A stretch of DNA of 52,704 nt from Nanobdellota archaeon (lineage in GTDB: Archaea > Aenigmatarchaeota > Aenigmatarchaeia > QMZP01): positions 1 through 52,704 of the forward strand of contig JBDRJQ010000035.1 in NCBI GenBank assembly GCA_043814765.1. Direction: 5' to 3'. Made by a program: the position numbers and the translations under genes. Positions 35,156 through 36,361 of this stretch are shown here, piece by piece. The stretch's first letter is position 1, and each line of letters starts with the position of its first letter. The notes beneath the pieces are model-generated. The model made no database searches. It saw only the letters and a list, made by a program, of their open reading frames with translations, and was not told where the DNA came from.

Positions 35156-36361
35156 TTAAGTCCTATACCTCAATATTCCGGCAATTCCACCAATCTCTTT
35201 TAATTGCTGTCCTTTTTCTGTTTCTATTGAGATAATTTCAATGTTTGTACTCATCTCTTCGGCTTTCTTAAGAACGTCGTCTGTTATGTCTTTTTCTGAA
35301 ACAATTTCTAAAGCAGCATCACAATTAGGACACTTTTGCATGTCAATCTGCTCTCGGGATAGGGGTTTATCCACCTTAAACCCACAGTTACACTGATAGC
35401 TCACCTTAACCCAGTCGAACGCCTCTGAGAGCAAAAGTAACTCTAGGTTACCCTCTTCTAGGGCTTTCACAACCTCAGAGAATCCATAGATTGCCAGACC
35501 AGAATCTTTGCTGAATTCTGAGAAGAATCGATCCAGAATCTTTTTCTCCCTCATTACAGAAGCTTCGGATAGTATATCCTCTCCCTTTTCTAAAACTTCC
35601 CTTAAACCATATTCATTGCTGTAAGAAACATCAACTACGCCAATTACTTTATCTCTTAAATTGTATGCTAAGAACCCCCCTTCTGCAAACATGTCTTTTA
35701 TAGGACCAGGCCCGCCAATAATAATGCCCTTTAGTACAAGAGATTTGTACTTTTCTGATGCAATATCACCGACCAGTTTCATGAAATCATGAAGCAATCC
35801 CTCTCTTATGCGCTGATATCTTGCCTGTGACCAGCCCCCTTTCTTTGTTTTACCAGGAACAATAGATTCCATGTGTTTCATTACCTCTATTCTTTTTCCT
35901 TTTAGCAGACCTATTGTAGCCTCTGATTTGTCCAAAACTATTAATCCATACAACTCCTTTTCTTCTAACAGCGTTTCAAGAGGACCCAAAATAAACACCT
36001 GATCGCATCTGTAAAGTCTTGTATTAAGCGGTTCAGGCGGTTCAACTGCCCAGATCTCTATGTCTGCAACACCTTCTTTATCAGAAACATTGCCACAAAA
36101 CATAGCAAGACCGTTTTCAGGTGTTGATTTGTAGAGTTTCATGTGCTGCAAAATCTTCTCGAGCGCAGACATAACGTTTTTTCTCACGGGTTTGCTTTTG
36201 ATATTTATTGCAGTCGATTGTTCTGATTTTATCTGCGATGCTACTTTGTCTAAGCTAAACCCAGCAGGAACATAAACTGTGACAAGCTCTGTGTGCCTGC
36301 CGCGCATATTCCCCAATTCAGCTAAAAGCTCTTTTAGCTTCTTCCTTTTTATGTCAGACAT
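35156..36361 (-). CDS. prf1: Peptide chain release factor aRF1 with GGW(SQ) in place of GGQ
   Basis: TELVT, NIKS, YRCDQVF, GPG and GGIAGILRY motifs; the catalytic loop reads KKGGWSQARY. Confidence 0.93.
   Translation of the reverse strand: MSDIKRKKLKELLAELGNMRGRHTELVTVYVPAGFSLDKVASQIKSEQSTAINIKSKPVRKNVMSALEKILQHMKLYKSTPENGLAMFCGNVSDKEGVADIEIWAVEPPEPLNTRLYRCDQVFILGPLETLLEEKELYGLIVLDKSEATIGLLKGKRIEVMKHMESIVPGKTKKGGWSQARYQRIREGLLHDFMKLVGDIASEKYKSLVLKGIIIGGPGPIKDMFAEGGFLAYNLRDKVIGVVDVSYSNEYGLREVLEKGEDILSEASVMREKKILDRFFSEFSKDSGLAIYGFSEVVKALEEGNLELLLLSEAFDWVKVSYQCNCGFKVDKPLSREQIDMQKCPNCDAALEIVSEKDITDDVLKKAEEMSTNIEIISIETEKGQQLKEIGGIAGILRYRT

Follow-up and report, generated by a model that had tools for sequence, protein, structure and literature searches.

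The window examined here (the whole stretch of DNA that was analyzed, 52,704 nucleotides of contig JBDRJQ010000035.1 from a Nanobdellota archaeon) carries on its minus strand the gene for aRF1, the archaeal class-I release factor. The glutamine of the GGQ motif is taught as the residue that positions the hydrolytic water, and GGQ itself is, to our knowledge, taught as the only motif common to every class-I release factor across the domains of life. In the aRF1 of the window, this glutamine is replaced by tryptophan. The features of the gene are given below.

35156..36361, minus strand: aRF1 coding sequence, 401 aa (MSDIKRKK...), ATG at 36361 and stop codon at 35156-35158; also 401 aa in the database gene call (P0001)
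36194..36205, minus strand: NIKS stop-codon recognition motif, N53-S56 (TAINIKSKP); I54 and K55 invariant in a 42-sequence alignment
35993..36013, minus strand: YxCxxxF motif, Y117 R C D Q V F123; Y117, C119 and F123 invariant in the 42-sequence alignment
35831..35839, minus strand: GGW tripeptide, G175 G176 W177, at the GGQ position on the tip of the M-domain loop
35825..35830, minus strand: S178-Q179; S178 invariant and the +1 residue of the intein site of relatives, Q179 the candidate "displaced" amide (GGxSQ)
35321..35392, minus strand: Cys4 zinc-ribbon-like insert in domain C, C324, C326 ... C344, C347 (YQCNCG...QKCPNCD); C324 and C344 invariant, C326 and C347 nearly so

The mechanical open reading frame runs further, to a TTG at 36391. 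Read in the frame of the ATG at 36361, minus-strand codons 175-179 are GGG (35839-35837), GGC (35836-35834), TGG (35833-35831), TCA (35830-35828) and CAG (35827-35825), giving G175 G176 W177 S178 Q179. HMMER alignments to the PDB chains 4af1 (Halobacterium aRF1) and 3agk (Aeropyrum aRF1) and to human eRF1 place GGW exactly on their GGQ, and G175 and G176 are invariant across the 42-sequence aRF1 alignment. The initial annotation of this DNA, which had read GGW-S-Q instead of GGQ at 35839-35825, is thus correct in every detail of its codon string, and it was also right that TGG lies two base changes from a Gln codon (CAR) and that the stop-recognition motifs NIKS (residues 53-56) and YxCxxxF (residues 117-123) are intact. 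In the AF2 model of the protein (mean pLDDT 88.9), GGW is predicted to lie in the loop that joins strand 157-165 to the long M-domain helix 177-205, with lower confidence at the loop, as expected for a GGQ loop off the ribosome. A Foldseek search with this model ranks aRF1/eRF1 chains first (4af1, E 1.8e-43), with a TM score of 0.78 to the eRF1 chain 5lzt_ii of the pre-accommodation complex 5lzt. Just upstream of the gene, an ORF for a KaiC/RadA-like ATPase (36371-37132, plus strand) starts divergently, followed by one for a FlaI/VirB11-type secretion ATPase (37134-39140, plus strand); we saw no functional tie between these neighbors and termination.

Family assignment and copy number

The GGW protein is an aRF1 by descent rather than by motif. 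Profile searches find all three of the domains eRF1_1, eRF1_2 and eRF1_3, and the NCBIfam equivalog TIGR03676 (cut-off 234.7 bits) scores 467.9 bits, with positions 2-403 of its 403 aligned. With canonical aRF1/eRF1 (TIGR03676; PDB 4af1, 3agk, 1dt9 and 5lzt), the protein has in common the three-domain fold, NIKS, YxCxxxF, the Gly-Gly pair, the S and R residues past the loop, its presence as one essential copy and its placement in the gene tree, while it differs in having Trp for Gln (Met, Phe or Ala in sister lineages), a Gln two residues downstream and no Mtq2, the Gln-N5 methyltransferase. The GGQ expected of a class-I factor is therefore absent, GG being retained and Q replaced, as is the expected N5-methylation by Mtq2-Trm112, with no Gln in the motif and no Mtq2 in the genome.

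As an alternative to a housekeeping aRF1, a specialized paralog of the baeRF kind had been considered in the initial annotation. The central domain, however, scores 131.5 bits with eRF1_2, and the baeRF and acVLRF1 Pfam matches are weak cross-hits under it: acVLRF1 reaches 43 bits, nested beneath the eRF1_2 match, while PF18854 (baeRF1 family 10) reaches 55.8 bits over the same span of the protein. Membership in baeRF1 family 10 was rejected, as eRF1_2 outscores PF18854 on the same residues and the host is archaeal. A displaced Gln (GGxSQ) does occur in Vms1-like paralogs, as the initial annotation stated, and GGWSQ fits the GGxSQ loop of the aVLRF-1/acVLRF-1 proteins, in which the presumed catalytic Gln lies two residues past GG (Burroughs & Aravind 2019, PMC6514570). 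Those proteins are rescue paralogs without a stop-codon-recognition domain, whereas the GGW aRF1 is a housekeeping factor that stands outside their families by both profile and domain architecture: the NF041024 profile stays below cut-off (31.7 against 125) and the codon-recognition domain eRF1_1 is present. Pelota/Dom34 belongs to the same superfamily and likewise lacks the catalytic Gln, but it combines an Sm-like N domain with a degenerate, unconserved and non-catalytic loop, in contrast to the NIKS motif and strictly conserved GG-W loop of the GGW aRF1. A Pelota identity was also rejected, since the N domain is eRF1_1 with NIKS, the pelota profile TIGR00111 scores 93.5, under its cut-off of 177.65, and the genome has a separate pelota gene. 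The paralog alternative is refuted, with the gene grouping among the aRF1 orthologs of its own order.

The gene is also the only one of its kind that we found. The genome, which like every genome compared is a metagenome bin (859 kb in 39 contigs, 88% complete), contains one aRF1, the GGW gene, and one pelota-like gene (contig C28), and a single aRF1 is present in 287 of 301 genomes of the phylum, the double matches being intein-split genes. The GGQ domain of bacterial-type release factors and ArfB (PF00472) was found neither in this genome nor in 40 relatives (41 genomes). Of the 25 ORFs in the genome that contain GGQ, none is release-factor-like as judged by recognizable motifs; those recognized encode TrpRS, a class II aaRS, RtcA, an oxidoreductase gamma subunit, an Sm protein and a PHP-domain protein. 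Three GGQ-pattern matches in GGW genomes looked most like release factors, and each proved to sit in a short non-coding frame. The housekeeping reading of the initial annotation is supported by these results, as this is the sole aRF1 ortholog, it scores far over the equivalog cut-off, and the search for a second, GGQ-bearing aRF1 returned none in the 88%-complete genome or its relatives.

Stop codons of 507 long ORFs are TAA in 276, TAG in 117 and TGA in 114, so that the use of all three, noted earlier for genes in the window, holds genome-wide. Together with a Trp content of 1.1% of residues in long ORFs and the presence of tRNA-Trp(CCA), this stop usage indicates a standard code with all three stops in use. 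ARAGORN run with intron search also reports an intron-containing "tRNA-SeC(tca)" on contig C37 (35270-35387, minus strand), which could reflect an ordinary tRNA whose intron has been misplaced. Only 23 tRNAs could be detected genome-wide, a low count that is probably due to non-canonical introns.

Since 12% of the genome is missing, one might suppose that a GGQ aRF1 resides there and that the GGW gene is a specialized paralog, or else that the TGG codon is erroneous, or is decoded or edited as Gln. All three variants are effectively refuted. Every one of the 93 GGW and 62 GGM genomes of the phylum is single-copy, and the gene has its place among the aRF1 orthologs of its order. TGG is two base changes away from CAR, and 93 other genomes of the phylum have the identical TGG, as do 111 of the 120 closest protein clusters, so that it is not an assembly error. 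Recoding is opposed by the Trp content and by tRNA-Trp(CCA).

Distribution of the motif, the intein and Mtq2

The GGW motif is lineage-wide. Codon-level DNA patterns of the form P-x-K-x3-G-G-[codon]-[S/C] were run against some 300 genomes of the phylum, and loci were fetched where the pattern failed. Among 277 classified genomes of the Aenigmatarchaeota, a DPANN phylum, 120 carry GGQ, 93 GGW, 62 GGM, one GGF and one GGA, so that Gln is replaced on the scale of a lineage (157 of 277 genomes). The 40 relatives from the same family and order are nearly all GGW, with GGQ in five genomes of one family (f1), and the 120 closest protein clusters divide into 111 GGW and nine GGQ. GG and W are retained across the order although its aRF1s are only 53-67% identical. 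Archaea-wide, 150 representatives at 50% identity comprise 120 with GGQ, 13 with GGW, seven with GGM, three with GGF and one each with GGS, GGE and GGA; a few of the non-Gln representatives fall outside the phylum clade, and all of these are singletons. The phylum-wide scale of the change, the alternation of Met with Trp, and the loss of Mtq2 in the same genomes go beyond what the window by itself had offered. A full-text literature search returned no description of GGW release factors or of aRF1 lacking GGQ in DPANN or Aenigmarchaeota, and a survey of the superfamily treated the Gln as conserved in classical aeRF-1 (2019, PMC6514570). The protein is a natural variant of a known factor.

In a maximum-likelihood gene tree (LG+C20, 68 rows, rooted on other archaea), the aRF1s of the phylum fall into two groups, one entirely GGQ and the other (support 82/76) holding every W, M, F and A variant together with a small subclade of GGQ sequences from family f1. 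These sequences, five rows in the tree, are compatible with one clade (AU p = 0.45), and the minimum history is therefore two events between Q and non-Q, plus switches from W to M, F or A. On this tree, the two events could be a pair of losses or else a loss and a reversion.

Many relatives carry an intein in aRF1 (loci L033 and L041-L048; C...HN, followed by Ser +1), and it sits exactly between the motif residue, whether Q, W, M or F, and S178. This point is equivalent to 35830/35831 of the window, whose allele is the empty site. The inteins are either mini-inteins of 135-157 aa or full-length ones of about 500 aa, with Intein_splicing/Hint Pfam domains. A genome of the same genus (G001) has a 157-aa mini-intein in its aRF1, and inteins are also present in 42 of the 120 GGQ representatives across archaea.

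Motif identity is tied to the presence of Mtq2, which is missing from the switched genomes. Scored with the archaeal HemK/Mtq2 model TIGR00537, the methyltransferase is above cut-off in 106 of 301 genomes, and it is present in 99 of 120 GGQ genomes (those with no match include sub-threshold and partial matches and incomplete bins) versus one of 157 non-Gln genomes. That lone positive is a marginal, partial match of 87.5 bits in a 384-aa ORF. Matches of 83-91 bits in the GGW genomes G017, G027 and G037 were rejected as a different methyltransferase, having NPPF, NLPF or NGPT instead of NPPY and longer ORFs, and recurring as second matches beside true Mtq2 in GGQ genomes. The check for a HemK2/PrmC methylase suggested with the initial annotation found none in the genome of the window, either with the TIGR00537 profile or by tblastn with Mtq2 of the same family. 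Only two to three independent contrasts lie behind this co-absence, and the pattern, though complete, therefore cannot reach significance alone.

The catalytic loop and its downstream amide

The initial annotation had considered a Gln shifted by two residues, a proposal for which the comparison of sequences provides support within limits. Among 134 non-Gln aRF1 clusters, 103 (77%) have Q at +2 (GGxSQ), 28 have N at +3 (GGWSAN) and three have neither (GGWSAS), versus Q at +2 in 21 of 129 GGQ clusters (16%). Phylogenetically independent pairs agree: +2 Gln accompanies loss of the motif Gln in about seven, the opposite holds in about none and about three are ties (median sign-test p 0.016), with several of these contrasts depending on singleton metagenome sequences. 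The shifted Gln is not universal, however, as 31 of the 122 GGW clusters of the order lack it (28 with SANR and three with SASR). The sister clade keeps SQ invariant and varies at the X of GGX (W, M, F or A); in the order of the window the reverse is seen, W being invariant and SQ replaced in about a quarter of clusters. There are also GGA and GGE variants without a bulky residue, and the three GGWSAS clusters are without a downstream amide. A displaced Gln thus appears plausible but not sufficient, and the contributions of W177 and Q179 are inseparable from sequence alone.

One reading of this pattern, which we consider rather unlikely, is that catalysis has shifted register, with Q179 as the true catalytic Gln, the loop entering two residues deeper as proposed for aVLRF-1/acVLRF-1, and W177 merely tolerated or stacking on rRNA. 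The excess of +2 Gln (or +3 Asn) in non-Gln clusters, the direction of the independent pairs and the invariant SQ of the sister clade would all be expected from it, and GGxSQ loops have a precedent within the aeRF-1 superfamily (PMC6514570). Yet it is W that is invariant in the order of the window while +2 Gln comes and goes, and the singletons among the contrasts weaken the pairs. SQ is present in 16% of ordinary GGQ factors, and may therefore be a permissive background rather than a catalyst. If a Gln still required methylation, moreover, Mtq2 should have been retained.

We consider it probable instead that the protein is a working housekeeping release factor with a remodeled catalytic loop, in which a hydrophobic residue substitutes for N5-methyl-Gln and a downstream amide probably assists. 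Substitutions of the Gln in yeast eRF1 are lethal, which counts against this explanation. A yeast Q182E strain could not be propagated, which likewise argues against free replacement (PMC12440015). In bacterial factors, the two glycines take a backbone conformation open only to Gly, the main-chain amide of the Gln coordinates the water (a Gln-to-Pro change abolishes release), and the Gln side chain, aided by N5-methylation, packs a pocket and selects water (PMC4691834, PMC5799190). Laboratory Gln mutants of bacterial RF1/RF2 and human eRF1 show the same division of labor, in which the main-chain NH and not the side chain is the chemical catalyst, with the side chain packing the pocket and selecting water. 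Such mutants are engineered and less fit, whereas in this large lineage a residue other than Gln is fixed in nature as the wild type.

In the mechanism that we propose, aRF1 would act as a normal, essential class-I factor that reads all three stops with an N domain that is intact and reaches into the peptidyl-transferase centre (PTC) with its M-domain loop. This loop would have been remodeled from GG-Q(methyl)-S-x to GG-W-S-Q, with hydrolysis still relying on the two glycines and on the main-chain NH of residue 177 to position the water. The bulky Trp, or Met in sister lineages, would fill the pocket otherwise packed by N5-methyl-glutamine, with Q179, or N180 in the GGWSAN variants, probably adding an auxiliary amide or polar contact. 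Since such a plug would need no modification, Mtq2 would become dispensable; alternatively, the order may have been the opposite, with loss of Mtq2 in a reduced genome selecting for the Gln switch. Orthology, the single copy, conservation throughout the lineage, the co-absence of Mtq2 and the tie to a downstream amide are observed, whereas catalytic competence and the roles given to W177 and Q179 are what we infer.

It is also conceivable, though very unlikely, that the factor is catalytically impaired, reading stops and recruiting ABCE1 while the peptide is freed slowly, or by another hydrolase after subunit splitting, at a cost tolerable in slow-growing symbionts. In its favor, model organisms are considered to need the Gln in vivo (PMC12440015), DPANN genomes are reduced and probably host-dependent, and the PTC rRNA of the phylum is itself unusual. 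This would nevertheless leave the entire proteome hanging on an unknown release route, with an alternative GGQ hydrolase absent from the 41 genomes searched. GG and the next residue are strictly conserved, unlike the degenerate Pelota loop, and a catalytically dead factor is unlikely because of this strict conservation and because no other hydrolase is a candidate.

If the factor works as we propose, nature would have shown in vivo, through a lineage numbering hundreds of genomes in which Trp or Met is fixed, that the Gln side chain can be replaced. The natural GG-W/M-S-Q sequences could be used to probe the roles of the Gln and its methylation in speed, water selectivity and the release of peptides ending in Pro or Gly. 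Annotation, or calls of "activity", based on GGQ will misjudge such factors.

The peptidyl-transferase centre and aIF5A

The catalytic centre of the ribosome is itself unusual in this phylum. In an Rfam alignment, the 23S rRNA of the genome (contig C29:3459-6611, outside the window; locus L122, among loci L120-L149) has a non-canonical PTC, with GGGGAUAAUGGAG in place of the consensus GGGGAUAACaGag and UUGCUUCUCCGCCGUCGGCUC in place of UugcuACcUCGAUGUCgGcUc, as well as a 111-nt insert in H89. Mapped by us onto E. coli numbering, they comprise C2452U, A2453G, A2497U, C2499U, U2500C, A2503C and U2504C. Two pairs among them look compensatory: A2453G with C2499U, which turns an A.C wobble into G.U, and C2452U with U2504C, a pair swap. 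The variant is common to GGQ and GGW members of the order, and A2503C or A2503U reaches GGQ families of the phylum. A direct correlation between the PTC change and GGW was rejected on these grounds; as the same variant occurs in GGQ genomes, it is not specific to GGW and could only be a permissive background.

Such a background allows a broader scenario, which we judge unlikely, in which the PTC changed first (A2503C phylum-wide, with C2452U/U2504C and A2453G/C2499U in addition in the order of the window) and thereby enabled termination with neither a catalytic Gln nor a Gln methyltransferase in a large part of the phylum. The PTC and the release factor would then have co-evolved, with Trp or Met as a hydrophobic plug and the amide moved to a new place (GGxSQ), both taking over from N5-methyl-Gln. 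As a separate observation, one 1.9-Mb bin (G038; loci L120 and L147) has three 23S rRNA genes, one of which differs from the rest of the order in having a canonical PTC, suggesting that the bin includes a foreign contig.

The window also encodes aIF5A (26193-26570, plus strand), in which Arg (AGG, 26286-26288) occupies the position of the hypusine Lys (SKTGRHGHAK). A link between this Lys-to-Arg change and GGW was considered and rejected. Among the other members of the order, SKPGKHG is the reading in all 16 that yielded the motif: 15 GGW genomes (out of 23 with a fetched locus) and the GGQ genome G006. The Arg is present only in the genome of the window and its genus-mate G001, and is thus confined to the genus.
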